Virus record (IMG/VR): IMGVR_UViG_3300045988_183986
Strand: one strand, 5' to 3'
From: a virus
DNA length: 64,000 nucleotides
Under the pieces are notes generated by a model. That model made no database searches and had not been told where the DNA came from. It saw only the letters and a list, made by a program, of their open reading frames with translations. Each line of letters begins with the position of its first letter. The first letter of the stretch is position 1. Below are positions 14,034-59,300 of the stretch, in pieces. A program made the translations under genes and the position numbers.

Positions 14034-14057
14034 TGCTTACTCCTTCCGCGACTGAGA

Positions 14058-25279: not shown

Positions 25280-25390
25280 ATAGCGGTTGTTAAAACGGAA
25301 AGAACAACTAATATACAACTGCCTGTTGTTATCATGATACCACACATGCAGTTGTCCAGCAACGAACTTTTGTTCGCATAGACAACAAAA
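25280..25390. promoter_or_regulatory. cluster of GTTGT/ACAAC inverted repeats (candidate parC centromere / divergent operator region)
   Basis: GTTGTTaaaacggaaagAACAAC, ACAACtgcctGTTGT, GTTGtccagCAAC, gACAACa within ~110 bp between parM (minus) and the XRE gene (plus). Confidence 0.45.
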
Positions 25391-25406
25391 AAGAAAGGAG
25401 TTATTT

Positions 25407-31223: not shown

Positions 31224-32759
31224 TTATTTTATATCGCTTGCGTTTTCGTCAGGTTCGATGTGCGCATTGTCATCAGCCTTCTCGATTGCAGGCAAACCGT
31301 GAATGTTGATATTGCGGTCGGTCTTAGCATTGATACTGTTCGCACGAACGATATCGGCCATATCGATACCGGTAGCTTCCTTGACAGTCTGCATGGTCTG
31401 TGCCATCAGCACGGGAACATTCCCAGACACGCCGGAAACGCCAGATGCATCGCCGCCGATGATAGATACCTTGTCGATTGCGGACAAGGGCTGAGCCACA
31501 TTCTTAGCAATATCAGGCAGGACCTTGATAAGCATTTCAGCGACAGCGGCATCGTTGTACTGCTTGTAAGCCTCCGCCTTTTGCTTCATAGCTTCGGCTT
31601 CAGCAATACCCTTCTGACGGATAGCCTCAGCTTCTGCCTTACCTACAAGGGCAATACCTTCGGCTTCCTGCTGCTTTGCAAATTTCTGAGCCTCAGCAGC
31701 GCGTTCGGCTTCGTATTTTTTTGCTTCTGCTTCTTTTTGGCGTTTATACAATTCGGCATCCGCAGCTTTGCGAACCTCTGCATCCAGTTTTCTCTGCTGA
31801 ACCTCGGCTTCCTGTGCAGCAAGGTCGACCATCTTTTTCTGCTTTGCGATTTCCGCATCAGCTTCGGCTTCTTTGATTTCCTTGGCGCGAAGATTTGTCT
31901 GAATCTGTCCTGCAGCGTTGGCATCAGCAGCAGCCTTGTCAGCCTCGGCCTTCAATTTGGCCTTTGCCAGCTGCAATTCATTGTTGCGCTGTGCAATAGC
32001 AGTCTGGGCTTCAACTTCCTTTTCATTGGCTGCCATTTCAGCGTCAGCCTTTGCGCGAGCAATATCACGAGCGGCTTCGGCACGAGCAATCTCTGCGCGT
32101 TTCTTGACGGCTTCTTCCTGCTCAATACCAATAGCCTCAATGACGCCGTGATTGTGACCTTGCGCATCGACGGCGTCTTTTACATCCTGCACATTGAAGG
32201 TCACAACTTCAAGACCCATTTTTGCAAGGTCAGGACGGGCATTTTCGATTACTGACAGCGCCATTTGTTTACGATTTGTGAGAATCTGGTCAACCGTCAT
32301 ATCCGAAACGATTTCGCGCAGGTTGCCTTGCAAGACATCATTTACTTTGTCATTGATGCCTTTTTCGTCCATGCCAAGGAAGTTCGAAATAGCCGACTGC
32401 TGACGACCCGTAATATATTCCTTGACATCCTTTGCACCAGATGCCTGAACCTCAGAGTCGAGAACAGTAGAATTATCGCTGTATACCTGAATCGTTACAA
32501 CAGAATCAATCCAGAGCGATACGCCTTCTTTTGTCTTGACACCCGTCTCAGGGGTTTTGACATCAATTTTCAGAAGACGCATATTCAGCTTATCTGCACG
32601 CTGCAGCACAGGGATGACAAATGTACCCTTTCCACAAACGACCTTGGGCTTTTTCAAGCCGAATCCAGTCACAACGATGGCTGCTGTGGGAGGCGCTTTT
32701 TTGTAGCATGTGAATGCGAACAAAACAAACAATACGACAATGATGATTCCTAAAAACAT
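31224..32759 (-). CDS. flotillin / SPFH (band 7) family protein
   Basis: N-terminal TM. SPFH core followed by long Ala/Glu/Lys-rich heptad region (AEAEA/KAEA repeats). 511 aa, typical of FloA/YqiK-type flotillins. Confidence 0.8.
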   Translation of the reverse strand: MFLGIIIVVLFVLFAFTCYKKAPPTAAIVVTGFGLKKPKVVCGKGTFVIPVLQRADKLNMRLLKIDVKTPETGVKTKEGVSLWIDSVVTIQVYSDNSTVLDSEVQASGAKDVKEYITGRQQSAISNFLGMDEKGINDKVNDVLQGNLREIVSDMTVDQILTNRKQMALSVIENARPDLAKMGLEVVTFNVQDVKDAVDAQGHNHGVIEAIGIEQEEAVKKRAEIARAEAARDIARAKADAEMAANEKEVEAQTAIAQRNNELQLAKAKLKAEADKAAADANAAGQIQTNLRAKEIKEAEADAEIAKQKKMVDLAAQEAEVQQRKLDAEVRKAADAELYKRQKEAEAKKYEAERAAEAQKFAKQQEAEGIALVGKAEAEAIRQKGIAEAEAMKQKAEAYKQYNDAAVAEMLIKVLPDIAKNVAQPLSAIDKVSIIGGDASGVSGVSGNVPVLMAQTMQTVKEATGIDMADIVRANSINAKTDRNINIHGLPAIEKADDNAHIEPDENASDIK

Positions 32760-38900: not shown

Positions 38901-41900
38901 AACATTCAGCGTAGCAGGAGTGATTTCAAAGGTGTTGTTTACGCGGGTGATATTGAAGTTGGCATCATCGCCCTCGATAATCATCGGGTGCTTGCCGACA
39001 TCTTCACCAGCATCGGTGCCAGCGTCAGGACGAACAACCTTCAGATTTGCAAGGTCGCCTGCATCCTCGCTCACATAGTAAGCGCCGTCACCAGTTGCAG
39101 TCCAAGTCAGTTCGGGGTCAGCCTCGCCGTAGACCTTCTTCTGGCCTTCGTCAACAACCACGATTACATCGCGCTTATCGACATGCAGAGAACCATCAAC
39201 AAAGACAATGGGGTCATAGTTCTTTGCGCCCTTGTTTTCCAGACCGCTCATGGTGATGACATAATCGCCAGCAGCAGGACGAGCAGGAATCTCGGACAGA
39301 GAACCGTCAGCATTCTTGATGTTGTAGACAACCGAGCCAGTGAATGCGGAAGCAACGGTGTCATTGTTCTTCAAGCCAGTAACGGTGTAGCTGAACGTGG
39401 GAACGGTGCCGCCATAAATCATGGAGTAACCGCCAGCCACAGTAAAGGTGACCTTAACGGGCTTGATGGTCAGAGTAGCAACTTCCATAGCTTCGGGCTC
39501 GGTGGTGGAAGAACCAACATCGACGGAAGTGCCGGAGCCAGTCACGATGGTGATGGCGTAGTTGCCGTACTTGTTGTACAGAGTAGAGCTGATGGGATAT
39601 TCACCGACATCCTCACCGGCTTTGCGAGTGACAGAACCACTCAGAGCACCAGTAGTCAGTTCCAGCGTATTCTTCTTCAGACCATCGTTGGAAATGTTGC
39701 CGGAAATCTCGCTGTAAGAGAATGCGGGGTCTGCATCGCCGTAATCCTTCTCGTAGTTGGAGAAAGTCAGGGTGATGGGACGAGGAGTGATGGTGATGGT
39801 AGAATCAATCACCGTCAGGTCGTAGTTGGCAGGCTGTGCGTAGATAGCTTTCAGAGCATAAGTGCCAACGCTTGCGGAAGCAGAAGTTGCACCGGAAGTC
39901 AGGGTAATGCCCTTAAGAATCTTTTCGGCTTCTGCTGCCTGAACATCAGTAGTAGTCAGCAGACCAGTGCCGCCCTTGATGTAATCCTTCACGTTCATAG
40001 AAGTGAGGGTCTCACCATAGGTCTTTTCGGTTTCAAGCAGGTTGATAACGGCAGTACGCTTATTGATGGTGAAGCGAACATCATTGGTGAAGCTGATACG
40101 ATAGTTCTTTGCCATCGTCTGCTCATAGATGTTACCGCTGTAAATCGGATAAGTGCCAGCGTTCTCGCCTGCTTCACGGCTCAGACGAGCCTGTGCGAAG
40201 TCGGCCTTGGGTTCTGCGAAGCTGGTGGTGTTGTAGTCGAAGATGACATAGGTATCGTTGACTGCAAAGCTGGGGTCAGTCTCGCCGTAAGTCTTGGACA
40301 GGCCATAGCGAGGAGTGATGGTCAGGGGCATCTGATGAACAATCAGCATGTTCTTGCCATCGGGCTCAGACAGCTTAACGCTGTTTGCGGGCTGGTTATC
40401 CAGACGGAAGGTCAGGTTGTAAGAACCTGCATCGTACAGACCAGAAGCGTTCGCAGTAGCCTCAACGGCGATACGAACAACACCCAGAGAAACATCCTTG
40501 CCGTCCATCTTGATGTTGACGGTTTCGCCATCGTGGTAAATCTGAGTGCCATCGGAGGTATTCACGTTGACGGAAACTTCCTTGGCGATGGTATCGGGCT
40601 TCTTCTCACCGTAAGTAGTCTGCAGTGCGTTGAAGGTGACAGAGACATCAGCCTCGGTGACTTGGAACGTAGCCTGCGGAGCAATCGTTACGATGTAGTT
40701 GGGGTTCTCATCATAAGAGATGGTAGCCTCATAGTTGCCGACAACCGTAGTGGGGTCTTCCCACTTGGTCAGGTCGATGTGGATGTTCAGCGGGCTGCCC
40801 TGCGGGTCAACCACATTGATAGCCTGAGAACCGGTCTCGTCATACAGCGCATAGCTGGGGGTGTTCTTACCGGCAACGCCATACTTACGGACGCTGTTGG
40901 TAGTACCCTTGATGGTGACAGGCAGTGCATTGATAGTCAGCGTACCGCTTGTACCATCGCTGTAAGTGCCGGTATAAACGATGTTGTAGTTGGGGTTGGT
41001 GTAACCGGAAACAACAATAGGATAGGTACCGACACCAGTCAGCTTACCAACGGTATTGTCAACGCCATACTTGATGGTGACAGTGCCGCCCAGAGAAGCG
41101 ACGGTATCATGGATGCCGATTTCATCGTTGCTTGCGAAGTTCTTGTATTCCAGTGCGCCGGTAATGTCGGCATCGCTGGGATTCTCTGCGCCATACAGAC
41201 GCTCACGGTTCGGAACGGTGATGGTCAGAGTACGCTTGGTGATAGTGTACTTATCGGGAGCATTGAAGGTGATGTCGTAGTTCTTGGCGATTTCAGCAGT
41301 CTGGAACTGTGCATCGCTGTAAGCGTAAGAGCCAACAGTCTCGCCGACCTCACGAGTCACAACGCAGCCAGCAAAGTCGGAACCAACACGGCCACCCTTG
41401 CCATTGACGGGGTCAAGAGTAAAGGCAACGCCGCCCTTGGCATCACTGTCGCCGTAAACCTTCGTCTGACCGCCCATCACATTGATGGCGATAGGACGCT
41501 TGGTAACGGTCAGCTTGCTGTTGACAAAACGAACCAGATAGTTGTCGTAACGGTCGTAGTTCTTGCCATCGGCATTGGGGTCCCAGTCAGAAGACCAACG
41601 CTCCTGAGAAGCACCCTGCACAGATGCGCTGACGGTGTATTCGCCAACATTGGCAGTTGTAGGAGTGCCGCTGTTACCAGCCGCATCTACCATAGTAAAG
41701 CCAAGCTTGTCCTCGGTCAAACCGATGCTTGCCTGTGTATCGTTCAGCTTGAAACCTTCGATGGATTTAATCTTGCCGGAACGAGCAGCGCCATACATTG
41801 CGGACAGGTCATCGAGAGTGACAGTCAGCATTGCAGGATGGATGATGTACTTGCTGTTGATGACCTTGACGTCATAGTAAGCAGTGCATGCAGGGGGAAC

Positions 41901-43943
41901 TTCGACAGTCATCGGATATTCGCCAACATTCTTATTGTCGATATCCTGACGCTGTGTTGTCAGAACCATGCTGACCAGCTTGTTCACACCGTCATCAGCG
42001 GTGATGTCGGAACCGGCGACAATACGCTTATCGGAGGCCACTGCCTGAGCAGCACCGTTATAAGCAACAGCGTCGAAGGTGATGGTGGAAGACTTGCCCT
42101 TTTCAGCCTCACCATAGATGGCATCAATCTGGTCATTGGTGATGGTTACGTTACGCTTGGTAATTTCAAACGTTGCGGTAGCAAGGTTGATGTTATAACC
42201 ATTGATAGGCGCATTCGTCTGGATATTGCCGATTGTAACAGTGTAGCCACCGGGAGCAGAGGTGATGCTGGGCAGAACAACGGTGGGTTCACCGCTCAGA
42301 CCAAGCATCTCTTTCAGAGCAACTGCGTTGGACTTGTGCTCGTTGTTGGTCTTATACTCGAAATTGGTTTTATCGGTATCAGACCAACCGGTAATCACGA
42401 AGTCAACCTGAGGATTCTGCTGACCATACTGACGAGTGGCTTTGCTGCCGGTCGTCTGTACGCCATCATTGCCCTTGAAGACAAATACAGGAGTCAGGGT
42501 CAGAGTCTTTTCAGAAACGACAACATACACATCGCCGGTATTGGGCTGAATGTCGATGTTGTAGTTCGTGTTGCTCTTCGCGGAGGAACCTAAGATGATT
42601 TTGTAAGAACCGGTAGTGTCCTTATCGAAGTTCTCTGTGGTCAGAACATCCGCAGGAAGCAGGTCGCCGTCAACCAGACCACCATTGGTATCCATAACGG
42701 TGTAGTTAATCTGGCTGATGGTATTGCCCTTCGTAACATAGGTGGTATGAGGGACAATGTAAATCTGACGCTTGTTGATAGTCACACCCGTGTCATTGCG
42801 GATGTTCTTGGAAGAATCCAAGTTGGAACCATCAATGATGGTGTAATTCAGACCATTCACAGTAACGCTTGTGGCACCTGTATCAACATAAGTCGGATAA
42901 GTACCGGCATTGCAATGAATGTCTGTGGGATTCTGGCCGTCGCCATCAGCCGGAGCATACATGATGAAGCTCAGACCGTCGATAGCTGCCTGAATATCCT
43001 TTTCGACTTCCTGAGAAGTACGGGAATCAGCAGTGCTGTATTCGATGGTCAGACCCTTAGACTTGAAAGAGTCACCGTAGGTGTAGGTAACAGTCTGAGG
43101 CAGAATGCGAATGACATTCTCCTGACCGCTAATCTTGGTATACTGAATACCCGTGCCTGCGGCAATCTGCTTACCAGTCTCAGCAGCGGTGATTGCCTGA
43201 TAGTCCCCGATGACAGTCGTAGAACCGCCGCCATCAAACGCGCTGGCACCGCTGTTGTCTACGGGGTTTTCCTGACGGTCGCAAACCTGCAGATACAGGT
43301 CAGACATGTCAAGGTATGCATTCATGACGGGCTCGGCGACCTGCTCATCCTCGCTCAGAGAATAATACATGTCTTCAATGGGTTCCCAGTCATAAACTGC
43401 ATCCAGTTCCTCAGTGCGACGCGTGACCATCGCATCAAGAACCGCGTTTTCCTTGTCAGCCTGCCATGCCTTGCTTGCAAGACCGAAGTTGTTTGCAGCA
43501 GTCAGAATTTCATCTTTACGGCTTACAAGGGCGTTAGCCGCATCGATAAATGCCTGTGCTGCTTCACTGATGCTGCCAGTGGTAGAAGCTTCGCTGGAAG
43601 TGCTGGTGCTTGCACCAGTATCAGAGGCAGCACTGTTTGCGTAGGCAGTGGTCGTTTCAGACCCCGCCTGACTTGTAGCCTCAGAAGAAACATCGCTCGT
43701 CACAGAAGTGTCGCTGGACGCGGAACTTGCTGTGTCGGTAACATCGCTTTTCGGCGCGGGAGTAGTAGCGGAAGAGTCGGAGTTTGTTGTCGTAGTGCTG
43801 AGTGCATCAGTTTCCTTCGGAGCTTCTTCACTCTGCGTGATTCCACTCGCGCTCTCCACTGCATAAGCAGTGACAGGAGCAAACTGAGACAGGCACATTG
43901 CTACGGCGACAATCGCACTCAAAAACCGCTTACGAGGTTTCTG
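35991..43943 (-). CDS. giant cell-wall-anchored adhesin (~2,650 aa) with MBG (YGX-type) repeats and C-terminal N-Y-K-T-G sorting signal
   Basis: ORF 35991..44009. Start MQKPRKRFLSAIVAVAMCLSQFAPVTAYA (signal peptide, AGGAGGG RBS). Ser/Thr-rich N-terminal stalk. >15 repeats with TxTKRPxT...KxYGxxDP signature. C-terminus PTPAPVVVNYKTGVGFGADIIVPVIVVVALIGVGAFVIVKKKKGD. Confidence 0.85.
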   Translation of the reverse strand, partial: QKPRKRFLSAIVAVAMCLSQFAPVTAYAVESASGITQSEEAPKETDALSTTTTNSDSSATTPAPKSDVTDTASSASSDTSVTSDVSSEATSQAGSETTTAYANSAASDTGASTSTSSEASTTGSISEAAQAFIDAANALVSRKDEILTAANNFGLASKAWQADKENAVLDAMVTRRTEELDAVYDWEPIEDMYYSLSEDEQVAEPVMNAYLDMSDLYLQVCDRQENPVDNSGASAFDGGGSTTVIGDYQAITAAETGKQIAAGTGIQYTKISGQENVIRILPQTVTYTYGDSFKSKGLTIEYSTADSRTSQEVEKDIQAAIDGLSFIMYAPADGDGQNPTDIHCNAGTYPTYVDTGATSVTVNGLNYTIIDGSNLDSSKNIRNDTGVTINKRQIYIVPHTTYVTKGNTISQINYTVMDTNGGLVDGDLLPADVLTTENFDKDTTGSYKIILGSSAKSNTNYNIDIQPNTGDVYVVVSEKTLTLTPVFVFKGNDGVQTTGSKATRQYGQQNPQVDFVITGWSDTDKTNFEYKTNNEHKSNAVALKEMLGLSGEPTVVLPSITSAPGGYTVTIGNIQTNAPINGYNINLATATFEITKRNVTITNDQIDAIYGEAEKGKSSTITFDAVAYNGAAQAVASDKRIVAGSDITADDGVNKLVSMVLTTQRQDIDNKNVGEYPMTVEVPPACTAYYDVKVINSKYIIHPAMLTVTLDDLSAMYGAARSGKIKSIEGFKLNDTQASIGLTEDKLGFTMVDAAGNSGTPTTANVGEYTVSASVQGASQERWSSDWDPNADGKNYDRYDNYLVRFVNSKLTVTKRPIAINVMGGQTKVYGDSDAKGGVAFTLDPVNGKGGRVGSDFAGCVVTREVGETVGSYAYSDAQFQTAEIAKNYDITFNAPDKYTITKRTLTITVPNRERLYGAENPSDADITGALEYKNFASNDEIGIHDTVASLGGTVTIKYGVDNTVGKLTGVGTYPIVVSGYTNPNYNIVYTGTYSDGTSGTLTINALPVTIKGTTNSVRKYGVAGKNTPSYALYDETGSQAINVVDPQGSPLNIHIDLTKWEDPTTVVGNYEATISYDENPNYIVTIAPQATFQVTEADVSVTFNALQTTYGEKKPDTIAKEVSVNVNTSDGTQIYHDGETVNIKMDGKDVSLGVVRIAVEATANASGLYDAGSYNLTFRLDNQPANSVKLSEPDGKNMLIVHQMPLTITPRYGLSKTYGETDPSFAVNDTYVIFDYNTTSFAEPKADFAQARLSREAGENAGTYPIYSGNIYEQTMAKNYRISFTNDVRFTINKRTAVINLLETEKTYGETLTSMNVKDYIKGGTGLLTTTDVQAAEAEKILKGITLTSGATSASASVGTYALKAIYAQPANYDLTVIDSTITITPRPITLTFSNYEKDYGDADPAFSYSEISGNISNDGLKKNTLELTTGALSGSVTRKAGEDVGEYPISSTLYNKYGNYAITIVTGSGTSVDVGSSTTEPEAMEVATLTIKPVKVTFTVAGGYSMIYGGTVPTFSYTVTGLKNNDTVASAFTGSVVYNIKNADGSLSEIPARPAAGDYVITMSGLENKGAKNYDPIVFVDGSLHVDKRDVIVVVDEGQKKVYGEADPELTWTATGDGAYYVSEDAGDLANLKVVRPDAGTDAGEDVGKHPMIIEGDDANFNITRVNNTFEITPATLNVTLAPQSKIYGDENPVLSGDDLIFDGFVVKPVKGNTTPDDAGVLSIANLTFNFTDAEGAPATVASHAGTGKVVPANVENAAANNYTFVYAPVDFVIDKRPITVTAKPQTSIYGDDVAVEDWSDYGTVNVLEYTGDTAKAALVNGDILEGTNLCLVTSASHVGGYDIVPSFSGLAHRVGQASYQDYLVTAMNGTYTVTQRPLTWTIGTVGSVYGNEMAELSNTLTYTGDADKKTIVNGDDLKAIISITQKDVENAVAEKISMKSADGAASLVAESVPESVKNYGAYDMVGSYDNDDYLITIVNGVYTIGERLVEVTVTEPKDIVYGDTTNPDFTVNAVATNGDGTHGAAVKPDSLGLKMALVYTPFENDKTTDNAQTAPLTADAKATLTPDIASGDDGVESDSQFKTENVKNAGTYTYTVTSDYDAAVEQNYAVTIKVVDADKNEADGQFVIARKDLTVTLDPNPVVKLYGTKTEIPEIKTSGYAFDETAETVKLPSFELIVASSIDGIFGNVGLTKDAFKYVGGAYDNYNYLPTTGDLEVQRLHLADVEPATIVGTVADEKTGKPVEVTKKTTDDLSGLYFNSKVEVIAPKGYAIGTSDSLTDAEWAEKMVISANSEKVTSTYYLIDLKTGAITEMGTIITSLDTEAPVVASAFAADKVDSTNKTDLLNEKFVKFESTINVFITGEETGKAPEKDNDKKDDKKNDTDKKEDSGKKDETESGTDEKVPAESEKTETTNDKTEATTLRIAHGKPALFTTGDETGDENGNDVVATPDENGGKDDTEDPDFVPVVKVKDSVPAISALDGEYNSGVAKIQYYKVNGSAIAKSAKGDYTFDETKFETVNVTSIDKDNGYVTFKLSPDWTGYIVTRTVDKAGNYGDVRVASVKLENPPEESRPTPTPVVKNEPAPTPAPVVVNYKTGVGFGADIIVPVIVVVALIGVGAFVIVKKKKGDSEEKAAEKTEDKTEEKKQ

Positions 43944-44087
43944 CATGTTAGTTGCCCTCCTAATAATGTGAGTGTTCTGTGGTTTTACCACAGCCGGATT
44001 TATATACACCCTTACCTACTCCCTAGTGTGCAGCCTCGATTGTAGATAAGAAAGTATATCAAAACACAAGCAATCAAATTGCATATT

Positions 44088-44373: not shown

Positions 44374-47300
44374 TTATTCAGCGGAATCATCCTTATGGTT
44401 ATCTTTGTTGTCGTTTTCGTCCTTCTTGCGCTTGTGGTTTACTACCACCAGAGCAGCGACGCCAATGCCAACCATTGCTACCAGCCCAACAATGCTCTGT
44501 GCAAATCCGATACCCGTCTTCTTGTTGCTCGTGAAGATAGAGAAGAGGGAGAAGGGTTTGCCGTCTACCTTGAAGATATCGAGCCAGCCAATCGGCGGGG
44601 TCTTGGGCTTCTCAGTAGGAACAGGGGTCGGAGTAGGCTTCGGGTTGTCGGGAGTCGGAGTCGGTTTAGGCTCGTCAGGCGTTGTGGGAGTAGAGGGTTT
44701 CACAACAGGGACTTTCACCTCGTTGGAAGGTTTCTCTACATCTTCATCAATCGGCTTGGACGGGTCCTTACCATGACCCGGATTCTCGGGGTCTTCGGGA
44801 TTCTGACCCGGAGCCTTAGCGACAGCCACGTTAATGACATCGTGTCCGGCATCCGCGTCAACGGCAACATAAGAATAGGTCAGAGTGAAGGATTCGCCAA
44901 CAGGGATACGAGCAATAGTGAACGTTGTCGTTGCGCTATTGTAAGTATATCCATCACCGTTCTGAGCTTCAATATGGCTTTCGCCGTCATTGTTGTCCTT
45001 TACGGTTACATTGACAAGGTCTACTTCACCAGTATTGGTTACTACCACACGATAATTGATGGTTTCACCGACATTGACTTTCGTCTTGTCAGCACTCTTC
45101 ACAATCGTGAGGCTCTTTTCGAGCGGAACATCCGTTTCCGTACCGGAACCCGGAACTTCCACATCGACCTTGTTGGACGGAATATCCGTATCAGGGTCAA
45201 TCGGTTTCGTCGGGTCTTTACCCTGTCCGGGATTCTCCGGGTCTTCAGGGTTCGTACCGGGAACATGAATCGTCGCTACGTTTTCAAGAATGTGCGTGGT
45301 CACATCGGCGATACCGACAGTATAAGCGTAGTGGACAACCACATCGCCGCCAGCAGGAATCGTGTCGATGGTGAATACACCATTCTCATAGTGATAACCA
45401 GCGCCATCCACTGCGAAAATGCTTCCGGAGAAGTTATTCTCATCAGTCAGAGCAGCATTCTGAATATCGTGGTCTTTGCCATTGTGTACCGTTACGGTAT
45501 AGGTGACAGTCTCACCCAGCTTTGCGACAGTCTTGTTTGCAGACTTCCAGATGGTGACAACGCCATCATCAGGCTTCTTCACATCGACTGTATTGGACGG
45601 GATATTATACTGCTCGCCATCGTGCGTGTACTTAATGGTTGCGGTATTCTCCATAACGCTCTCATCGGTCGTCTCTACCGTATAGGTATAAACGATATCA
45701 AGAGCCTCACCGGCATCCAGATAACCGATAGTCCAAGTACCGTCTCCGTTATAGGTATAGCGGTTAGAACTCTCAGCCGTAACATCACCCGCAAAGTTGT
45801 TATGGTCTGCGACAGTGATATCGTTTACGGTTTTGTCTGTCGTATTCTTCACCGTAATGGTGTAGGTCACAACATCTGTCACCTTAGCGATATACTTATC
45901 GGCATCCTTTTCAACATCGATAGGCGGTGTCGGGTCTTTCACAACAGCAGCGTTCAGAACCTTAGGAGCATCAGCGGTAACTACCACATAGGTGAAGTTA
46001 AGCGTTACGCTCTCGCCAGCCTTTACAGTGCTGATGGTATAGGAGTTGTCGCCGTTATCCGCAACACCATCCATAGGTACGAAGTTGAGCGTTCCGTTGC
46101 CATCGAAGAAGTCTTCGACAACAACATTTTCCGCATCAATCTTGCCCTTGTTGGCGACAGTAACCATATAGTTGAGCGTATCGCCAACCTTGGCTTCTGC
46201 CTTATCAACGGACTTGGTGATTTCGATTACAGGAATCTCTGTTTCGGTTTCAGAGCCGGAAACTTCCACATCAACCTTGTTGGACGGAATCTCCGTATCG
46301 GGGTCAATGGGTTTCTCGGGGTCTTTGCCGTGACCCGGATTATTCGGGTCTTCGGGATTCGTGCCGGGAACATGGATTGTTGCAATGTTTTCGAGAATCT
46401 GCGTGGGCACATCAGCAATTTCAACCGTATAGGTGTAGTGGATAACCACATCACCGCCTGCGGGAATCTTATTGATTGTGAATTCGCCGTTCTCGAAGGT
46501 GTAATCTGCACCTTCAACGCTTACGATTTCGCCAGCAAAGTTGTTGGTGTCTGTCAGACGAGCGTTTTCGATGTCGTGATTCTTTCCGTTATGAACCGTG
46601 ACGGTATAGGTTACAACCTCACCCGGCTCAGCCTTTGTCTTATCTGCAGCCTTGCGGATGGTAACAACACCATCATCGGGCTTCTCGACATCGACGGGGT
46701 TAGAGGGGATATTGTAATCTGTGCCATCCTTGCTGTAAGTCACATTTGCAATGTTTTCGATGACGGTGGCATCCTCAGCCTGCATCGTATAGGTGTAGGT
46801 GATATGGATGGTCTCGCCAGCGGCAATAGTCGGAATAGTCCATGTCTTATTGCCATTGTAAGTGTACTTGTCAGCGTTTTCGGCCTTGATTTCGCCCTTG
46901 AAGTTGTTAGTATCGGTGACAGTTACATTGTCAACAGGCTCAGAAGTGGTGTTCTTCACGGAAATCGTGTAGGTTACAACCTCATCAACCTTTGCAATGT
47001 GCTTGTCGGCTTCCTTCTCGACGTCAACAGGCGGTGTCGGGTCTTTGATTACTGCGGCGTTCAGTACGAGAGGTTCGTCTCCTTCAACTACAACATAGCT
47101 GAAACGAAGCTTTACGCTCTCCCCTGCCTTGACCGTAGAAATAGTGTAGGTGTTGTCTCCGTTATCTGTCACACCATCCATGGCCTTGAAGTTCAGCGTT
47201 CCGTTTCCGTCAAAGAAGTCCTTAATCAGGATATTCTCAGCATCCGCGTTACCGCCGTTCTTGACAGTGACGGTGTAGTTTAGCGTATCACCAATCTTGG

Positions 47301-50300
47301 CAGTAGGCTTATCTACAGACTTGGTAATAGAGATTTCCGGAATCTCGGTCTCAACTTCGGAACCGGGGACTTTCACTTCGACCTTATTGGACGGAATGTC
47401 CGTATCGGGGTCAATAGGTTTATCCGGGTCCTTGCCGTGTCCGGGATTCTCAGGGTCTTCCGGATTCGTGCCGGGCACATGTGCCGTGGCAACATTTTCC
47501 AGAATGTGAGTGGGTACATCTGCAATCTGCACCGTGTAGGTGTAGGTTAGAACGGCGTCTGCACCAGCAGCAATCTTATCGATTACAAAGTGTCCGTCAA
47601 CGAACTTGTAGCCGACACCATTTGTGCCGGTAATCGTTCCAGCAAAGTTGTTGGAATCGCTTACGACCACATTGGTGATGTCATGCGCCTTGCCGTTGTG
47701 AATCGTAACCGTGTAGGTCACGACCTCACCGGGCTCTGCAATCTTCTTGTCACCGCTCTTGACAATCGTAACTTCGCCATCCTTCGGAACAACGACTTCA
47801 ACGGGGTCTGCCTTGATGACATACTCGCCGTCATCGGTCGTGTAGCGAACATCAGCTTTGTTGACCAGTGTAGAGGGGTCGGTAGTCTTCACCGTATAGG
47901 TGTAGAGAATATCGATGCTCTCACCAGCCTTGATGCTGGGGATAGTCCAAGTATGGTTGCCATTGTAGGTGTACTTGGCGTTGTCTTTAGAGGTGATTGC
48001 ACCTGTAAAGTTGTTGGTATCGCTGACCAGCAGGTCGGTAACGGTCTTATCAGTCGTGTTCTTCACCGTGATGGTGTAGTTGACGACTTCATCGACCATC
48101 GCCACATGCTTGTCTGCGGTTTTCTCGATGTCAATGGGAGGAGTCGGGTCTTTCACAACAGCAGCGTTCAGGACCATCGGTGCATCTCCGGCAACGACCG
48201 TGTAAGTGAAGCGGAGCGTAATGCTCTGACCCTTCTCCACATTCGCAACCGTGTAGGTGTAATCACCGTTATCCGTCACACCGTCCATCGGAACGAAGTT
48301 CAGGACACCGTTACCGTCAAAGAAATCCTTGACGATAGCGTTCTTGACTGCCTGTCCGCCAACATTCGTCAGCGTAATCGTGTAGTTCAGCGTATCGCCA
48401 ACCTTGGCTTCCGTTTTATCTACACTCTTAACGATTTCGAGCTTGCCTTCCGGCACATCAACATGCGTGCCGTCACCGGGAACCTCAACATCGACCTTGT
48501 TGGAAGGAATCTCCTCATCAGGGTCGCCGGGGTTCTTGCCGGGGACATGAGCCGTTGCAATGTTTTCAAGAATCTTGGTCGGAACATCGGCAATCTGGAC
48601 TGTGTAGGTGTAACGGACCACTGCGTCACCGCCAGCAGGAATCTTGTCAATGACAAATTCGCCGTTGGTGAACTTGTAGCCAGCGCCATCTACGCCTTCA
48701 ATCTTGCCCGCGAAGTTGTTCGCGTCAGTCAGACGGACATTCTTGATGTCGTAATCCTTACCGTTGTGAATTGTAACCGTATAGGTAACGACCTCGTTCG
48801 GCTCAGCCTTGGTCTTGTCGGCAGTCTTAAAGATGGTAACGACACCATCGTTAGGCTTTTCGACTTCGACGGGGTTGGACGGAATATCGTAGTCAGTACC
48901 GTTGTAGCTATAACGCACATCGGCAGTGTTTTCAATGACAGTTTCATCGCTTGCCTGCATCGTATAGGTGTAGGTAATGTCGATGGACTTGCCGGATTCG
49001 AGCGTTGCGATGGTCCAAGTCTTATCACCGTTGTAGGTGTAGCCCTTGCCATCTTTGCCTTCGATTTCGCCCTTGAAGTTGTTCGTATCGCTTACCAGCA
49101 GATTCGTCAAGGTGTCCTTGGAATTGTTCTTCACCGTAATGGTGTAGGTAACAATCTCATTAACCTTAGCGATATGCTTGTCTGCGCTCTTCACAATATC
49201 CGTGGACGGTTTGGGAGTTGTGATGACTGCCGCGTTCAAAACCTCAGGTGCGTCACCGTCAACCACCACATAGGTGAAGTTAAGCGTTACGCTCTCGCCA
49301 GCCTTGACACTTGCAATCGTGTAGGTGTCATCACCGTTATCGGTGACGCCATCCATAGCCACGAAGTTCAGTGTGCCCTTGCCGTCGAAGAAGTCCTTGA
49401 CCATGACATTCTCGGCATCGCCCTTACCGTTGTTCTTGACAGTAATCGTGTAGTTCAGGGTATCACCGACAGCGGCTTCACTCTTGTCTACACTCTTCGT
49501 CAGAACAAGGTCAGGAATCTTGGTTTCTGTCTCGGAACCCGGAACCTCAACATCGACAGGATTCGAAGGAATCTTCTCATCGTTATCGATAGGCTTATTC
49601 GGGTCTTTACCGTGACCGGGGTTGTTCGGGTCTTCGGGGTTCATTCCGGGAACATCAGCCGTAGCGATGTTTTCCAGAATCTGAGTAGGCACATCACCAA
49701 TTTCAACCGTGTAGGTGTAGGTCAGAGTGACCGAAGCGCCTGCGGCAATCTCAGCGATATGGAACTCGCCGTTCTCGAAGGTGTAATCTGCGCCGTCAAC
49801 ACCAGTGATTTCACCAGCGAAGTTGTTGGCATCAGTTACTACAACATCGTGAACATCGAAGCCCTTGTTGTTGGTAACGGTTACATTGTAGGTGACGACC
49901 TCACCCGGCTTAGCCATCTTCTTGTCCGCTTCTTTGTGGATGGAGACAGTGCCCTTATCGGGTACGACCACATCGACAGTCGGCGTATCAAGTTTCACGG
50001 TATCGCCGTTCTCGGAATACGTCACATCAGCCTTGTTCTCGAGGAGCTTCTCATCATTGCTCTGTACCGTGTAGGTATAGGTGATGTTGATAGTCTCCCC
50101 TGCTCCGATTTCCGGAATCGTCCAAGTGCTATCGCCGTTATAGGTGTACTTATCTGTATTGGCGGCATTGATGCTGCCAACAAAGTTATTGGTATCCTTG
50201 ACAGTGACATTCGTCTTTGCTTTGGTATCGGGGTTATACACGCTGATGGTGTAGGTCACGATTTCATCGACAAATGCGAACTTCTTGTCAGCCGTCTTGG

Positions 50301-53300
50301 TGGGTTCGAGCGGCGGGTCAACGGGCGGTGTCGTGACGACAGCGGCGTTCAGGACCTCAGGCTCATCGCCTTCCACGATAACATAGGTGAAGCGGAGCTC
50401 CATGAATGTACCGGCAGGCAGTTTGTTGATGGTGTAAGTGCCATCACCGTTCACTACAACACCGACAGCCGGGATGTAGTTGAGTTTACCGTGTCCATCG
50501 AAGAAGTCTTCGACCAGAATATTTTTCAGTTCGCCATCGCCAACATTAGACACCTTAACGGTGTAATGCAGCATATCGCCAACAGAAGCACTCTTCTTGT
50601 CTACGAATTTCTCGACTTTCAACTTGCCCTCGGGCGGGTTGACAGGAACAGGTACATCACTGCCGGGAACCTTGACGGTGACCTCGTTAGAAGGCTTCGT
50701 CTTTTCATTCTCAGGAGTCTGGTCTTCGTCAGCGAACCAGTAATGCAGCGTAGCCACATTCTTCAGCTCGTTGTAGGTATCCTGACCCTTACCGGCATCG
50801 GTATTCAGCACAATGTAATCATATTCTACCGTGACAGTCTTGCCAGCCGGAATAGTGCCGACCTTGATGACTGCGGAACCGGCAGATGCAGATTCCAGAG
50901 TACCGTTCTTGACATTCGTGATAACGCCGTTGAAGTTGTTCTTGTCGTGCAGCGCTGCATTCACATAGTCAACAGTGTCATTGTTGTGCATGACGACGGT
51001 ATAATGCACCGTATCGCCGATGTTTGCAATGGCCTTGTCTGCCTGTTTTACAACGGTGGGTCCGACATGTTCCGGCGTGGGAGTTTCGGGGATGACAGGG
51101 ATATCAACCTCATTGGAAGGAATCTTTACCTTGCCGGAATCCGTCACATATGTCATTTCGGCGTTATTGACAAGCATGGCATTGGGAGCATCTTCATTCA
51201 TTACCGTGTAGGTGTAGACAATGTCTACGCTCTCACCAGCGCCGATAGAAGAAATATTCCAGACCTTGTCGCCAATATAGCTTACAACATCAGTGTTTTC
51301 GGCAGGCGTGATAACGCCCGTGAAGTTGTTCGTATCCTTGACCTCAACATTCGTCTTGGTTTCGTTAGTCGTATTGGTAACGGTAATGGTGTAAGTCACC
51401 ACCTCGCCAACTACTACGGTCTGTTTATCTGCCTTTTTCTCGATTTCGGGAATTTCCGGAATCTCGACAGCAGCATTGTTTACGACATCCTTGTCGCCTT
51501 CCTGTACGGTATAGGTGACAGGAATCTCAACGACCTCACCAGCCGCAATTTCTGCGATGGTGAAGGAATGAGTCGCTGCGTCATAGGTGTACTTGTCGGA
51601 ACTTGCAGCATTGATTTCACCAATGCCGTCATTGAAGTCGCGCACAACTACATTCTGAGCAGTCATTGCACCGTTGTTCGTAACGGTAATGGTGTAGTGA
51701 ATGGTATCGCCAATCATCACACTGGATTCAAGAGAAGTCTTCACAACGCGAATGTCGCGGTCAGGCACTTCGCCTACATGGACAGTCTCAGTATCGGGGT
51801 CGCTCGTAACAGTCTTGTTGTCGGGGTTCTTGCCCTCAGCAACAGCCGTATTCACGATGTTACCGTTATCGAGGTTCATGTCCTCTGCCACAGCAGTATA
51901 GACATAAGTGATTTCAACGGAATCGCCTGCGTTCAGCTCAGGAATCATCCACTTGCCGTTTCCGTCATACATCAAATCGCCAGTGTACTTGACAGTGCCG
52001 TTGCCGTTGGATGTATCGGTAACGATAACATTCGTCAGCTTGGTATTGCCACTGTTCTTGACGGTCAGAGTATAGGTTACGGTCGTGTCATTGCCGTTCA
52101 TATCAACGAAGCTCTTGTCAGCGTTCTTTACGATGGTCAGTTCATCACGGAGCACATCAACCTCAACAGGTTTAGAAGGTTCTTCGATGTCCTTGTCACC
52201 CGGAATCTCAGTATCGGGATTCTTGGGAGCGTGAGCAGTAGCTACGTTGATAATCGTTTCGGGGTCACCGTTCTGCACAATATACAGGTAATTCAGAGTA
52301 ACGGAATCACCGATATTCAGAGCAGGAATGGTGAACAGTCTGGTTTCGGGGTTATAGGTATATCCGTCGCCGGTAGAGACGATAAACATACCCAGAGCAT
52401 TGGTGTCATCGGAGACGGTAACATTCGTCATATCGACAGTGCCGTCGTTCGTGACAGTGACCTGATACTTGACGACTTCGCCGGGATAAGCGTGGTCGCG
52501 GTCAGCAGACTTGACAATCGTCAGGTGCTTGTAGTACAGCGGCACGATTACTTCGTTGGAATCGACAGGTTTCTCAGGAATAGTCGGGTCTTCGCGAGCA
52601 GGAATCGTTGCGGTAGCAATGTTATCCAGCTTGCCGTTTGCGAGGTCATCTGCAACAACCGTGTACTTATAGGTGATGGTTACGGACTTACCAACGCCAA
52701 GGCTGGTGATTGTCCATGTTCCATCATCGTTGACACGATAGCCGAAGTGGAGCTTCGTGTTCTCGACAGGCTCGCCCATGAAGTTGTTCGTATCCTTTAC
52801 GACAACATTTTCAAGCTTCGTGTTGCCCGTATTGGTGACTTTCAGCGTGTAAGTGACGACATCACCTACGCCAGCCTCAGTCTTATCAGCACTCTTTTCG
52901 ATGGTCAGATTCTGACGGATGATTTCCACATCAACATCAGGAGTCTCAACCAACCAATCCTTGTTAGGCTCGGTATAGTTCGGAGTGGTGCTGCCATCAG
53001 GGTTCTCAGTATAGCTCTCGACTACCTTCATATCGGTAATCTTGGCGTTGTTTTCGAGGATATCGTTGTTGTTGGTGCCGTGGTCGGTCGGGTCTACCGT
53101 GTAGGTATAGGTGAACGTTACAGCATTGGTATGGGTTTCATCGCGCAGATGGGAAATCTCTGCGATAACGAACTCGCCCTTCTCTGCATCATAGGTCACA
53201 CCGTTTGCCTGAGACAGGACAGGAACACCAACGAAGTTGTTGGTATCTTTAACGATGACGTTGTGCAGGTCATGACTGGTCGCGTTCGTAACGGTAATCG

Positions 53301-56300
53301 TGTAGCGAATCACATCGTAATCCGTAGCGCGTTCACGGTCAGCAGATTTCTCGATAGAGACAATTTCCTTATCGCGAACGGTCAGAGTACCATCCACATA
53401 CTTGATGATGTAGTTGGCATTGCTGCCGCTGCCATCTTCGGTGTTGATGATAACTGCATCGCTGGGAACGTTCTTGCTGGAACCCACTTCGGTCTGAGAA
53501 CCGGTTACGGTCACAGAATCCATCTTATCGTGAATGCCAAGCAGGTCGTTATCTACGAGTTCCGGAGCGTAGGTATAGCCGGGTTCCGTCAACGGAGTAC
53601 CGTCATATACCTTTTCTGCGGAGTTTGCAGTAATGGTTACCTCACGCGGGTCAATGAAGAAATGTCCGGGAGTTACTGTGCCAATCTCAATATTATCTAC
53701 CTCTGTATAGGTAGGAACAATGGAATAGCCGGGGTTCTCGGTACGAACATTCTCACCCGGAACACGAGCTGCATCCAGATTCAGGGCACGGTCGATATAA
53801 TCGCGCAGGTCCTTATCCGGAGTGTAAGGCTCATCCTTCTCGTTCGTGAGCGTATAGGAAACATTGAACTTATCTGGGTCGTTATCACCGTAGGTCTTGC
53901 GGTCGTCTTCTGCCTTGATGTTAATAATCAAGGGTTTGACGGTCAACTTACCATCGATGTAAACGAAATCGTAGTTCGGGTTATGGAAAGTAGAATCCTT
54001 GGCAGATACAGGATATTCACCAACAGGGCTCCACTTCTCTGCATCAGTCTTGGTCTTGAGCGCATCTTTACCACCGATATCATCGATGGTGTCACCGCGC
54101 TTATAGCCGGTAATGGTTACGTTGGGTGTCGGGTTATCTTCGCCGAAATACTTTTCGTCGTCAATAACTGTAACAACGATGGTTGCAGGTACAATAGTCA
54201 GAGTTCCGGGAGTGGTAATGATTTCGTAGTTGCCGGACGGGTCAGTGCCATCAATGGTGATGGGATACTTGCCTACCTGCTCACCGTCATCAGTATCAGC
54301 GCCGGGACGCTTTGTGGTGATATCGAAGAAGTCTTCGTCACCGGGATTGACCAGTTCTTCGGGGTCAGTAATCGTCCAAGTCAGCGGGTCGGGGTCTTTC
54401 TCTCCGTAAACCTTCTGCTGGTCATCTGCCTTCACATGGATAGGTTTCTTACCAATCGTCAGGTCACCGCCAACATAGATAAACTTGTAATTGCTCTTGT
54501 CAGCAACCAACTGCTGTCTATCGTAGTTGATGGGATAATTACCAACTTTCGTCTTATTCGTTACGGGATTGCCAGCGTTATCGTTGCAGTACATTGTAGC
54601 AGTGCCGGAGACCTTGGATTCATCGTCCTTGATACCGGTACCTGTTTCGTCCTTAACGTCACGACCGACAAAACCTGTGATGGAATAAGTGAATTCGGGA
54701 ATCTCATCGCCGTAGGTGGTCTTGTATCCGCCATCGACCGTAACAGTGAGCGTTGCGGGGATGATTTTCAGAGAACCATCGTATACGGTAACGGCATAGT
54801 TCTTGTTGCTTGTATCGTACTTTGCGGAAATGAGGTAATCACCATCATAGAGGGTAGTTCCCCACTTATTGAGAGAATCTGCTGCAGTGACATCGCCGCG
54901 CACAACATTCTCACCCTTGGTGCGGTACAACTCAACATTCAGCGGGCTGTTTTCGGGGTCAATCAGGCCAATCACATTGCCAGCATTGTCTTCGTAATGG
55001 AAGGTAAATGCCGGGTCAGCAGTGCCGTAGGTCTTGACCTTATGGTCAATACGAACAATCAGTTCCTTCGGGTTGACAGTGATATCGCCATTGACATAGC
55101 GGATAACATAGTTCTTCTCGAAGTTTGTGTTGCTCTTGACTTCGAAAGTGGAGCCGATATGCTCTTCACCGTCTTCCAGAACAACGCAATCCGGGTTCAC
55201 CGCATCCTCGTTGTTGTTGCCAGCAGTTACGATGTACTTGCCAGCGTCAGACAGGTCGAAGCACAGAGTAGCGAAGCCAAGTTCACCGTTCAGAACGGTT
55301 TCCTTCGTGTCATCACGCTTGAAGCCGGTAATATCGGCATCAAATGCGGGATTCTCTTCGCCATAGGTCTTGGAATAGCCACCCTTTACGGTAACAACCA
55401 GCTCAGCCGGAGTAATCGTAAAGTTGCCGTTCTCCATGGTAATAACGTAGTTGGTGATACCATCCTTGCTGACAGGGCTGATATCGTTGGCATTGATGGC
55501 GTAAGCCTTGCCGAACGAATGCTCGCCAGTCCAGACATCTTCACCGGGTTCACGAGTCACGCCAGTACCTTCGAGGTCGCCGGGCTGGACAGGCACATCC
55601 GCGCCTTCCTTCTCGGTGAGAACGGGACCGTTTGCGTACTCGATGTAGTAGTTGCCATCTTCGCCACGGACACCGTCATGGAGCGTGTACTTCAATTCAG
55701 GGTCAGCGTCGCCGTAAACCTTGGTGTTATCCGCAGCAATAACGGAAACGGGGCGAGGAATGATAGTCAGGTTGCCAGCGGTAATCGTGATGTCATCATC
55801 ATCATAGATGGTGCTGTGGACACCGGACAGGCTGATGCAATCCTTGTAAGTGCCGCTGGAGCTGGTCTGTGTATCCAGATGGGTAAAGGTAAAGGAATTG
55901 GTGTTGATACCGGCTTCCTCTGCCGTGATTTCAACAGCCTCGCCGTTTTCTACCTTAAACACATGATAGGTGTAATCGGTAGAACCATCGTAGAAGCGGT
56001 TGACACGGTCGCCGTAATAGCGAACCTTATCATCCACGGTAATCATCAGACCCTGACGCTTGACAATGAGGTCGTTTGCGTAACGGTACTCAAAGTCGTA
56101 GTTCGGGTTATCCAGCTCAAGCTGTTTCTGGTCGTTCGCTGCGAGGTTACCGATTTGACGGTCCTGCGGCGTGGAGTAGACGGGATAAGAACCGACTTCC
56201 TCACCCTCTGCACGGACCAGATTGAAGACGATGGGAACCTTATCGGGGTTCACAACAACGCTTGCATCCGTGATACGGCTGCCTGCGCCGAGCTTCTGCT

Positions 56301-59300
56301 GACCATTTACGGAATTATGGGTAATCATATCGGTCAGGGTGAAATCCTGAACCTTATCAGCATCGCCCAGTTCCTTCTGCCAGCCAGTGACTTCCAGCAG
56401 CATCGGACGAGGTTTGATAGTCAGAACACCGGGCGTGTAGTTCGCAATCGTATAGTTATAACCGCCATCTGCGTTTTCACGAGGTACGAGAATCGTATGC
56501 TCTTCGCAGTAACTCTTATCGCCATACAAGTAATTGGAACCGACATCGGTGTACTTATTGTAAGTCAGGTTGATGTAATCGCTCAGAGTATTCTTTGCGG
56601 TTTCAAGAACCTTTGCGGTTGCGCCATCGTTATTCTTCAAAGCAACATCAGCAGTATCGCCGTGCTTCAAGCCAACAACGGTCAGCGTGTAGTCGTTTTT
56701 GTTATCTTCGCCGTAGTAACGCTCCTGATTACCGAATACGATTGTCAACGGGACAGGCGTAATGGTCATCTTAGCGTCGTTCGTTTCGACGATATAGTTG
56801 CTTGCTGTGCTCTTTTCGTAAGAGATACGGATGGTATAGCCTTCGTCACGGACATTCTCACCGCTGTCACGAACTGCCTTGATGCCGAGCATTTCGCTGG
56901 TAGGCTTAATGATTTCGCCATCGACAGTCCACTTCAATGCGGGTTCCGTGCCGCCGTATGCCTTCGTTGCATCGAGAGCCGCAATGCGAATCAGACGAGG
57001 ATGTACTTTCAGAACATTGGACTCGTAAACGAGTTCGTAGTTGGAAACTACCTGTCCTTCACTGTTCGTGACGGTCTTGATGCCAAGAGTATTGCCGTAA
57101 CCGGTGTTTTCGTTCACGGATACAGGATATCCGTTTACGGGAACATGGGTATGCGGATGGTCATCGTCATGATAATGCTCATGACCCTTGTGCATTTCGT
57201 TGTATTTCTCCAAGCAGTAAGCGCATTCTTCTTCGGGAACATCCGTCTGATAGATTACATCACTGCTCTGTGTAGCGGTTGTCAGATAAGGCAGATTAGA
57301 AGTGCCGTTCTTGAATGCCAGAGCGGTGCGGGAAGCGCCGTTTACGACCTCAACCACATTACCGATGGTATCATTACCAATCAGATGCATGTTGTTGTAA
57401 TCAACGGTAGCGTCATCGCCCAGAACGGTCCAGTTGTTCTCGTCCGAAACATCCAGTTCATTGCCTTGGTCATCTGTGCCAAGAACCTTGAATGTGGAGT
57501 TGAAGAACGGGTTCGTCGTACCGTAAATCTTCTGGCTTTCGTCAACGGAAATCATAATCTTGCGGGGTTTGACCTCGATGGAGCCGGGGTCTTCCGTGAC
57601 AACATAGTTCTTCAACACATCATAGTTGAATTCGTTCAGACCAATGTAAGATACGGGGTAAGAACCAGCATCTGTTGTCTCACTCGGTACTACATTGTAA
57701 ACGAACTTGCTCTGATAGTTGTTTGTTTTCTTCGCTTTCAGGTCGAGTTTTTCATCGTCCTGTGCAGCAGTCTTATGGTCTTCGACCAGACCTTCCATGG
57801 TCAGCCAGCTGTCAGAACCCTTATTCCAGTAGTAGACATCGTCTGCATACGGAAGCTTGATGTTCTTGAAACCGTGTCCATAAGTGGTGCTTACGCTCTT
57901 GACCTGCGCACGCAGCGTCGTACGGTAAATACCACCGCTGAAAGTCTTGTCTGCGATATAGTAGTCGTTGTAGTTGTTATTCACAAGGTACATTTCATTG
58001 TTCTGCTCAATGTCACGTACCAGTGCGTTCGTATCATCGATATCCTGTACAGTGTACTCAAATTCGATGTTTACGGTACCGCCGACCGGAATCGTGTCAA
58101 TGTAGAACTCTGTGCCCTGCTGGTTCATACGAATGCCATTGGTGGATTTCAGAGTGATGGGGCCATTGCCTGCAAATCTGCTCTTGAGACGCAGGTTCTG
58201 GATAGCAACAGGAGCAACATAGTTGTTCTGCGCGGCCAGACCATATCCAGTATCCTTGTTCGTAACTGCAATCGTAACAGTCATCTTCTGACCAACCTGC
58301 GGGGTGGTCGTGCTGTAGCTGTACTTTACAGAATACGGCAGATGGCGAATCGTATTCGTCGAAAGACCATTGTAACGGTCTTCTTTGATGACACCATTGT
58401 CGCCGTTTGCATCATACCCGGTCAGCTGCTCGCCAGCATTGCTGTCAGCATAAGAACCAACATAGGTCTGAGCATTCAGTTCAACGGAATCGTAGTTGGT
58501 GATATTATCAATATAGATATTTCCCTGCCCTTCTTCACCAATATTGGCGTTGTAGTAGGAATCATATACCTTGATGTTGTTCGGATTCACTACCGTGTTC
58601 TGGTAGTTATCCTGCTCGGTCTTGGTATAGCGGGTAATATCGATGTTTTCCTGTTTACCAGCAAGAATCATTTCATATGCCTGCTCGATAGTCACATTCT
58701 GATTATCGTAGACAGTCGTATCGGTCAGATACTTGCCGTTTCCGATATCATTGGAGTTGCCATCGTAGTTCCACTTGTATTTGTTCACATCATGGTACTG
58801 ACTGTGAACATACAGAGGACGAGGATTGATGGTACCAGTGAAATCTTCACTTGCAATATAATAGTTGTCAAACGGGTTGTTAATCAGTTCAAGAATCGTA
58901 ACGGTCTTGATACTGTGCAGACCCGTATGGATGGACTCTCTGAAACTCGTTTTTGCGAAGTCCTCAGGAGCATAGTTTTCGCAATAATAGCCGTAAGCCA
59001 GTGTGCTGTTCAGCGCGACAGTATCGCCGTGAACAATACCGGAATCAGCAGTTGCTGCTTTGATTTTAATATCAGATACCTTTGCGGTGCTGATATTGTC
59101 GTAAATCTTATTGTTGTCATAGCTGTAAAGATGCAGCGGGCGCGGATAAATATCGAAGTATACGACATTACCGTTGCCGGATACATATTCATCAGGTGTA
59201 GTGCTTTCGCCACGGACTACATAAGTCTTGCCGGGCTTCGTGTTCTCCCAGCAGAAAGTAACTTCGTACTTGCCCGTGTAGGTTGCCGTAGCAGTGTAGG

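Follow-up and report, generated by a model that had tools for sequence, protein, structure and literature searches.

The 64,000-nucleotide (nt) virus record IMGVR_UViG_3300045988_183986 of IMG/VR, the whole of which is referred to here as the window, contains on its minus strand a giant surface-protein gene, and the C-terminal part of the encoded protein is made up of tandem CLIPPER domains (Pfam PF01345, DUF11). The subject of this report is a repeat array within that gene, delimited here at 44,812-50,757 (minus strand), in which the domains recur as five successive CLIPPER/DUF11 triplets (U0 to U4), four of them (U1 to U4) led by a linker. Each triplet consists of an A domain of 102 amino acids (aa), a B domain of 121 aa and a C domain of 146 aa, the last including the linker, which is a proline/aspartate-rich disordered segment. 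The features of the locus, with protein positions numbered in the window frame, are as follows.

44,374-64,000, minus strand: giant surface-protein gene, truncated at the window end, with Pfam matches to MBG_2 and DUF11/CLIPPER
50,758-53,373, minus strand: seven single CLIPPER domains (d1-d7), diverged from one another, lying upstream of the triplets, neighbours 31-41 % identical
49,651-50,757, minus strand: U0, the A-B-C triplet that has diverged most, not preceded by a PEDP linker (protein 4397-4765, 369 aa)
48,544-49,650, minus strand: U1, long PEDP..NPGHGKDP linker with A, B and C (protein 4766-5134, 369 aa)
47,476-48,543, minus strand: U2, short linker PGKNPGDPDEEIPSN with A, B and C (protein 5135-5490, 356 aa)
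46,369-47,475, minus strand: U3, the unit used for the AlphaFold2 model, long linker with A, B and C (protein 5491-5859, 369 aa)
45,262-46,368, minus strand: U4, long linker with A, B and C (protein 5860-6228, 369 aa)
44,812-45,261, minus strand: partial unit, long linker (NPGQGKDP variant) with one terminal CLIPPER domain (protein 6229-6378, 150 aa)
44,374-44,811, minus strand: last linker, proline-rich spacer (KPSTPTTPDEPKPTPTPDNPKPTPTPVPTEKPKTP), NKKTG, hydrophobic helix, KRKK tail and stop codon
47,590-59,943, plus strand: antisense open frame of 4,117 codons, exactly codon-opposite to the giant gene

The giant gene comprises 6,523 codons from an ATG at 63,945 to the stop codon at 44,374, with a reading frame that is intact throughout. 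There is no stop between 63,945 and base 64,000, and because the frame is still open at that base the gene is regarded as truncated by the window end. Two relatives, L005 (a contig of a human-gut metagenome-assembled genome labelled Peptococcaceae bacterium HGM14211) and the metagenome protein P0004, carry about 820 extra N-terminal residues (7,580-10,489 in L005), followed by the same residues as those with which the window frame opens, so that the complete protein would have about 7,300 aa. In both relatives this extension begins with the signal peptide MSKGKTWQRVASAFLAAVMTFSTFSTTIAYAAEA, and it also holds an acidic Thr/Pro/Glu-rich segment. A glycine-rich block (GAGGGNAS...GGSGGGSGGG...) lies within the first 2,000 or so window-encoded residues. 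Neither Pfam nor NCBIfam gave a match in roughly the first 2,000 of these residues, and within the first 3,333 Pfam matched only MBG_2, with no recognisable adhesive domain. At least ten MBG_2 domains were recognised by Pfam in the middle of the protein, and the last 3,375 aa contain 23 PF01345 stretches (E 2.5e-240; 782 bits against a gathering cut-off of 24.6), overlapped by PF24346 (CLIPPER_2, 547 bits). Of the features by which fibrillar adhesins are recognised (signal peptide, adhesive region, repetitive stalk and surface anchor), the signal peptide (in the relatives) and the repetitive stalk (23 CLIPPER and at least ten MBG_2 domains) are present. The C-terminus, where NKKTG is followed by a hydrophobic helix and a KRKK tail, has, to judge from its sequence, the layout of a sortase-type sorting signal with a non-LPXTG motif (NxKTG), and the protein is probably anchored by a sortase; to our knowledge, NKKTG is not a documented sorting motif. 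No match to the repeat region was returned by blastn searches of plasmid and phage collections. The source organism is taken to be an uncultured human-gut Firmicute, the Peptococcaceae metagenome-assembled genome being the nearest genome. A second giant protein (2,672 aa, with MBG_2 domains) is encoded directly downstream (35,991-44,009, minus strand). The two giants share a C-terminal layout (44,374-44,520 in the larger gene), namely N[KY]KTG[IV]GF followed by a hydrophobic helix and a lysine-rich tail, the motif of the second being NYKTG.

The periodicity of the array was found at both the DNA and the protein level. Direct-repeat families of 4-6 copies have start-to-start spacings of 1107, 1107, 1068 and 1107 nt (about 45,120-50,400), and a protein lag scan gave the best self-similarity at lags of 369, 356, 725, 738 and 1094 aa. 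The linker, PG.NPEDP..NPGHGKDP..PID....IPSN, starts at protein positions 4766, 5135, 5491, 5860, 6229 and 6379; the copy at 5135 is 13 aa shorter than the others, and the single 1068-nt spacing is due to this short U2 linker. Tandem Repeats Finder did not report the array because its maximum period is 500. An earlier reading of the window, made from the sequence alone, had placed four to five supra-repeats of about 1.1 kb, each of three DUF11 domains and a PEDP...NPGHGKDP linker, at 44,900-50,700 inside the giant gene; this period, composition, copy number and position agree with the array as delimited here.

The copies are much less alike than that sequence-only reading had held. It called them near-identical and recurring almost verbatim, yet the pairwise identity of U1 to U4 is only 60-71 % in protein and 63-72 % in DNA (28-37 % divergence), and U0 is 49-57 % identical to U1-U4 in protein. 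Synonymous differences between units amount to 0.63-0.74 per site (Nei-Gojobori), which is saturated, with non-synonymous distances (dN) of 0.20-0.31 and dN/dS of 0.09-0.18. The longest exact DNA run common to two units is 41 nt (U1/U4, encoding KAGESVTLNFTYVV); exact runs between units are mostly 12-29 nt, and only three in-register runs reach 23 nt or more (23-41 nt). The best-conserved stretch of the units is the end of domain C together with the linker, and it is from there that the impression of verbatim repetition comes. The protein consensus quoted in the sequence-only reading occurs at no position as written and at two when loosened. Its 14-nt landmark CGTGTAGGTGTAGG was located exactly at 47,533 and 49,708 and with two mismatches at 46,426, and nothing within two mismatches of it was found near 48,605; it also occurs at other spacings, as it is the reverse complement of the codons of a YTYT beta-strand present in B- and C-type domains. 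Along the chain of 23 domains, adjacent domains are 23-41 % identical and same-type domains three positions apart 51-76 %, a pattern that, on the sequences, is the one expected if three already dissimilar domains were duplicated as a block.

The units are also old. Orthologous units in relatives are 87-97 % identical, against 63-72 % between paralogous units, and clear orthologues of units exist in proteins that are only 56-64 % identical overall (U4C is 78 % identical to the last C domain of P0014, and U0C 76 % identical to the middle C domain of P0012), from which the age of the array follows. Recent gene conversion between units as a general process is ruled out by the saturated synonymous sites, with only the three runs of 23-41 nt standing out. 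Being divergent, saturated at synonymous sites and without shared runs longer than 41 nt, the units are, in this sequence, poor substrates for RecA recombination and for assembly collapse.

PF01345, which now bears the name CLIPPER, is established as an isopeptide domain, the family being the typical stalk of fibrillar adhesins; in the member solved as PDB 9IFR, a Lys715-Asn806 isopeptide bond gives thermal and protease stability (PMC12617251). In the window, K9, D43 and N96 of the domain alignment are invariant in 23 of 23 CLIPPER domains, where the mean column identity is 43 %, and no domain of 10 units from five proteins departs from these three residues. A phmmer search of one unit against PDB sequences gave no more than a weak match to 9IFR (E 0.048), in which K9 and D43 of domain B (K154 and D188 of U3) align with a 9IFR Lys and Asp with the numbering off by one; these residues of 9IFR would be the isopeptide Lys-715 and the catalytic Asp. 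An AlphaFold2 model of a single domain reached a predicted local distance difference test score (pLDDT) of 96, and its best Foldseek match in the PDB was again 9IFR (E 1e-5, template modelling score 0.68), with 4HSS (SpaD) also among the fold matches; a CnaA-like immunoglobulin-like (Ig) beta-sandwich fold is thus predicted for the CLIPPER domains. The model of the whole U3 unit (pLDDT 82) has three beta-sandwiches. The PEDP..NPGHGKDP segment (pLDDT 39-62) is predicted to be disordered, the IPSNxVxV stretch after it forms a strand, and in the domain alignment the position of the linker corresponds to a short hairpin in domain B. When the complete three-domain model served as the Foldseek query, all matches were to generic multi-Ig proteins (for example integrins and alpha-2-macroglobulins) and were uninformative. 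The conserved residues suggest that Lys-Asn isopeptide bonds would form in these domains.

Relatives were compared by the number of linker-bounded units, of which the window has four.

L002 (Logan contig), 96-97 % identical to the window: three units, exactly one 1107-nt unit missing; no Ns, and an extra G that shifts the frame
P0002 and P0003, 98-99 % identical: unit order as in the window
L003 and L004 (87-89 % identical) and P0015 (from its protein identity), together about 80-89 %: five units, one of them an extra mosaic unit; N gaps in L003 and L004
L007, about 84-91 % identical: unit number as in the window, with an N gap at the U4 linker
L006, 95 % and then 86 % identical: U2 fused to the terminal linker, with the jump in identity at the joint
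L001 (P0004), about 80 % identical: fusion of the N-terminal region to an A domain, with the joint in mid-domain, in two samples

In L002, the sequence passes from the short U2 linker into the U3 body, the switch taking place over some 10 nt around TGTAGATAA between flanks that are 96-97 % identical to the window. A k-mer misjoin is an unlikely source of this deletion, as no more than 9 nt are common to U2 and U3 of the window at this point. In the extra unit of L003, L004 and P0015, the B domain is by inspection about 85 % identical to the U4B of that lineage and the C domain about 83 % to its U3C, and this mosaic of U4-like B and U3-like C suggests past recombination between units. L001 carries at 9,422-14,473 a "mini" allele (P0004, 1,683 aa) with about 5,700 residues deleted, in which the signal peptide and N-terminal region of about 820 aa are fused to an A-type CLIPPER domain, with the joint in the middle of that domain; the microhomology there, about 5 nt, was read from other printed sequences rather than from the joint DNA of L001. 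The second giant gene next to the mini allele is also halved (1,365 aa). The N gaps of the relatives' scaffolds lie at 9,972-9,981 in L003, 5,345-5,354 and 9,969-9,980 in L004, 1,047-1,056 in L006 and 9,885-9,912 in L007; they arise although the units there are only about 65-77 % identical, and strain mixtures with different unit numbers are a possible cause. Judged from these sequences, unit number probably differs among lineages (3, 4 or 5). The variation spans lineages 80-97 % identical and is therefore slow, and the rate of change is clearly not that of high-identity repeats.

Taken together, these observations make it likely that the region encodes the part of a giant surface-protein stalk that lies nearest the cell, built of old, diverged CLIPPER triplet blocks with occasional loss and gain of units. 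The stalk would be a chain of 23 CLIPPER domains with CnaA-like beta-sandwich folds; in characterised members of the family the first and last strands are locked by a self-made Lys-Asn isopeptide bond (PMC12617251). The last 15 domains before the terminal one would be five copies of a three-domain block A-B-C that was duplicated whole long ago, the copies then diverging to about 65-70 % identity under purifying selection, and each block duplication would have lengthened the stalk by roughly three Ig-like domains. Duplication by blocks would also keep every pair of neighbours at or below 41 % identity, an arrangement thought to protect from inter-domain misfolding; adjacent domains of large proteins are usually less than 50 % identical, which is thought to limit misfolding (PMC8201768). 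Units would occasionally be lost, gained or reshuffled in register, giving relatives with three, four or five, in a slow turnover that would proceed by microhomology or homeologous recombination, unlike the rapid expansion and contraction of high-identity repeats. Several points weigh against this account. All of the unit-number variants are short-read metagenome assemblies; the three-unit contig L002 also carries a frameshift (the extra G), L006 may be chimeric because its identity falls from 95 % to 86 % at the joint, and N gaps lie inside the repeat zone of the L003, L004, L006 and L007 scaffolds. An adhesive role of the N-terminal part comes with no Pfam or NCBIfam match, the isopeptide bonds are deduced from residue conservation and a predicted fold, and the misfolding rationale for the triplets would be the application of a general principle.

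The main competitor of this diverged-block account is a periscope-type stalk, in which highly similar DNA repeats recombine often, expand and contract rapidly between and within strains, and collapse in assembly, much as the sequence-only reading had proposed for what it took to be a recombination hotspot. The range of unit numbers (three in L002, four in the window, five in L003, L004 and P0015), the mosaic extra unit with its U4-like B and U3-like C, the N gaps in the repeat zone of relatives and the three in-register exact runs of 23-41 nt would all suit such a stalk. It is nevertheless unlikely to be the explanation. A unit DNA identity of 63-72 % with saturated synonymous sites argues against any recent duplication or homogenisation, whereas in the class itself the identity of adjacent repeats is 82-100 %, and variation is proposed to be driven by high identity of the DNA (PMC8201768). 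Among strains 96-99 % identical to the window, its unit order is mostly retained (P0002, P0003), and the variation that exists is spread over lineages 80-97 % identical, hence slow. Length variation of the adhesin thus seems to hold as far as relatives with three, four or five units are concerned, but not as the product of a high-identity hotspot, given DNA divergence of 28-37 %. That the periodicity or the unit count of the window is an assembly artefact, by collapse or spurious duplication, is very improbable. Gaps in relatives' scaffolds and one possibly chimeric joint at a linker speak for it, but the window has no N and its 6,523-codon frame is intact, each unit is unique with at most 41 nt shared exactly, so that ordinary reads and k-mers resolve the units, and the junctions U1-U2, U2-U3, U3-U4 and U4-terminal were each found in independent assemblies (L003/L004/L006, P0002, P0001/P0003). 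The predicted risk of assembly collapse is not borne out either, as the unit order of the N-free window is reproduced piecewise by the independent assemblies P0002, P0003 and L003/L004; the window sequence can be trusted. An intermediate idea, and a tentative one that is held with some doubt, is that whole units are lost and gained in register at biologically useful rates despite a DNA identity of only about 65-75 % between them (a "slow periscope"), with crossover points that would lie in the disordered PEDP..NPGHGKDP segments or in short conserved strands. If it were true, gut strains would carry stalks of three, four and five units together with the 1,683-aa mini version, and stalk length would be tuned without the misfolding cost of identical neighbouring domains.

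The antisense open frame had been attributed to the repeats, an origin that does not fit its position: the repeat zone covers only 3,111 of its 12,354 nt, and three quarters of the frame lie outside. Its stops would correspond to sense TTA, CTA and TCA codons, which number only 7 among the 6,523 codons of the giant gene, against 51 expected from the codon usage of 29 neighbouring open reading frames (ORFs). A real overlapping gene kept open by selection, with the repeats as part of it, would account for the absence of these codons from 4,130 sense codons, where about 31 are expected from the 29 neighbours (P about 2e-14), and for their absence from about 3,300 codons of relatives 87-91 % identical. 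The depletion, however, is not specific to the antisense-stop codons, since ATA (0.2 %), CCA (1 %), CGA, AGG, GGG and TCG are equally avoided. This holds for both giant genes, with ATA making up 0.2-0.6 % of Ile codons against 7 % in the 29 neighbours and CCA 1 % of Pro codons against 11 %. The GC content at third codon positions, measured for the larger giant gene, is 0.57 against 0.48 in the neighbours. The second giant gene, with 2 TTA, CTA or TCA codons among 2,672, has a shadow frame of its own (1,632 codons). If the codon usage of the giant gene itself is taken as the basis, the expectation for the span falls to about 4 stops (P about 0.014), and an exactly codon-opposite register is the usual position of a shadow ORF. 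With all rare codons avoided equally, a selected overlapping gene is ruled out and is given practically no credence. The antisense frame is instead a side effect of strong codon bias combined with a low content of Leu and Ser. It is neither a gene nor a product of the repeats and should not be annotated as a gene. The strong bias of the giant genes itself suggests that they are highly expressed or that, being very long, they are under selection for accurate translation.

Downstream of both giant genes lies a cluster (9,972-15,010, minus strand) that is not in a ribosomal-operon context and encodes a treble-clef zinc protein, a SecE-like protein, a trigger-factor-like FKBP protein (just below the cut-off), a SecY (330 bits, above the TIGR00967 cut-off; only 150 bits with the SecY2 model) and a class-B-sortase-like protein (9,972-10,943; 78 bits, below the NCBIfam cut-off of 153.75). 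The same SecY/SecE/trigger-factor set is present in L001, where it comes directly after the adhesin genes. From its gene content, the cluster could serve the giant proteins as a module dedicated to their export and anchoring, or it could simply be housekeeping genes of the organism. The 20 kb or so between the second giant gene and the SecY cluster (15,100-35,900) contain many ORFs without a family, along with a ParM/Alp-like actin (24,209-25,468), a flotillin (31,224-32,759), an IS605-type TnpB (15,863-16,966) and a DUF2325 protein. L001 lacks this stretch, which may be a mobile element that was inserted; there, no more than about 2.3 kb with three short ORFs separates the adhesin genes from the zinc-protein/SecY cluster. 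At the low-coordinate end of the window, radical-SAM, Api92-like (DUF1281_C) and PIN7-domain proteins (2,231-3,016, 3,996-4,793 and 6,994-7,662) are found among ORFs without a family.

Among known systems, the closest are the CLIPPER stalks represented by Acinetobacter silvestris B9T28_05395 (PDB 9IFR; PMC12617251), with which the array shares the Pfam family, a predicted CnaA-like beta-sandwich and a tandem arrangement of the domains along the stalk, from the middle to the C-terminus, of a secreted protein that is very long and carries a sorting signal; the positions of the isopeptide Lys, the catalytic Asp and the Asn are conserved in 23 of 23 domains. The window protein differs in having a Gram-positive-type NxKTG sorting signal in place of an OmpA-like anchor and in its 23 domains, of which 15 form a three-domain super-repeat that contains the disordered PEDP..NPGHGKDP segment as an insertion. 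It also lacks cysteines and any disulfide motif, and its isopeptide bonds are putative. Periscope proteins (SasG, Aap, Rib and the SHIRT repeats of Sgo_0707) have long, highly identical repeats, adjacent SHIRT domains being 82-100 % identical (PMC8201768). A rod-like, cell-wall-anchored stalk of tandem folded domains whose repeat number differs among related strains would be common to them and the present protein, in which adjacent domains are 23-41 % and unit DNA 63-72 % identical, so that the high identity of that class is absent. Gram-positive pilins and MSCRAMM stalks (CnaA/CnaB, SpaD 4HSS) likewise have Ig-like domains with a Lys-Asn triad and a sortase-type C-terminal signal; unlike pilins, which are polymers of subunits, the window encodes a single giant polypeptide, and no pilin motif or pilus-sortase operon was seen in it.

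Titin, a eukaryotic intracellular filament protein without isopeptide bonds, has super-repeats of 7 and 11 Ig/Fn3 domains. There as here, dissimilar beta-sandwich domains would have been duplicated as a block, leaving equivalent positions more alike than neighbours, although the domain family is unrelated and the likeness is one of organisation only. The feature is accordingly a CLIPPER-domain stalk of a fibrillar surface protein with a diverged three-domain super-repeat, which is an ordinary design, and it is best annotated as a stalk of 23 CLIPPER isopeptide domains, with five diverged triplets accounting for 15, rather than as a near-identical repeat array. The relatives with three, four and five units and the natural deletion allele provide concrete candidates for variation of stalk length among gut strains. 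The case illustrates how very long stalks may grow by block duplication with neighbouring domains kept dissimilar.

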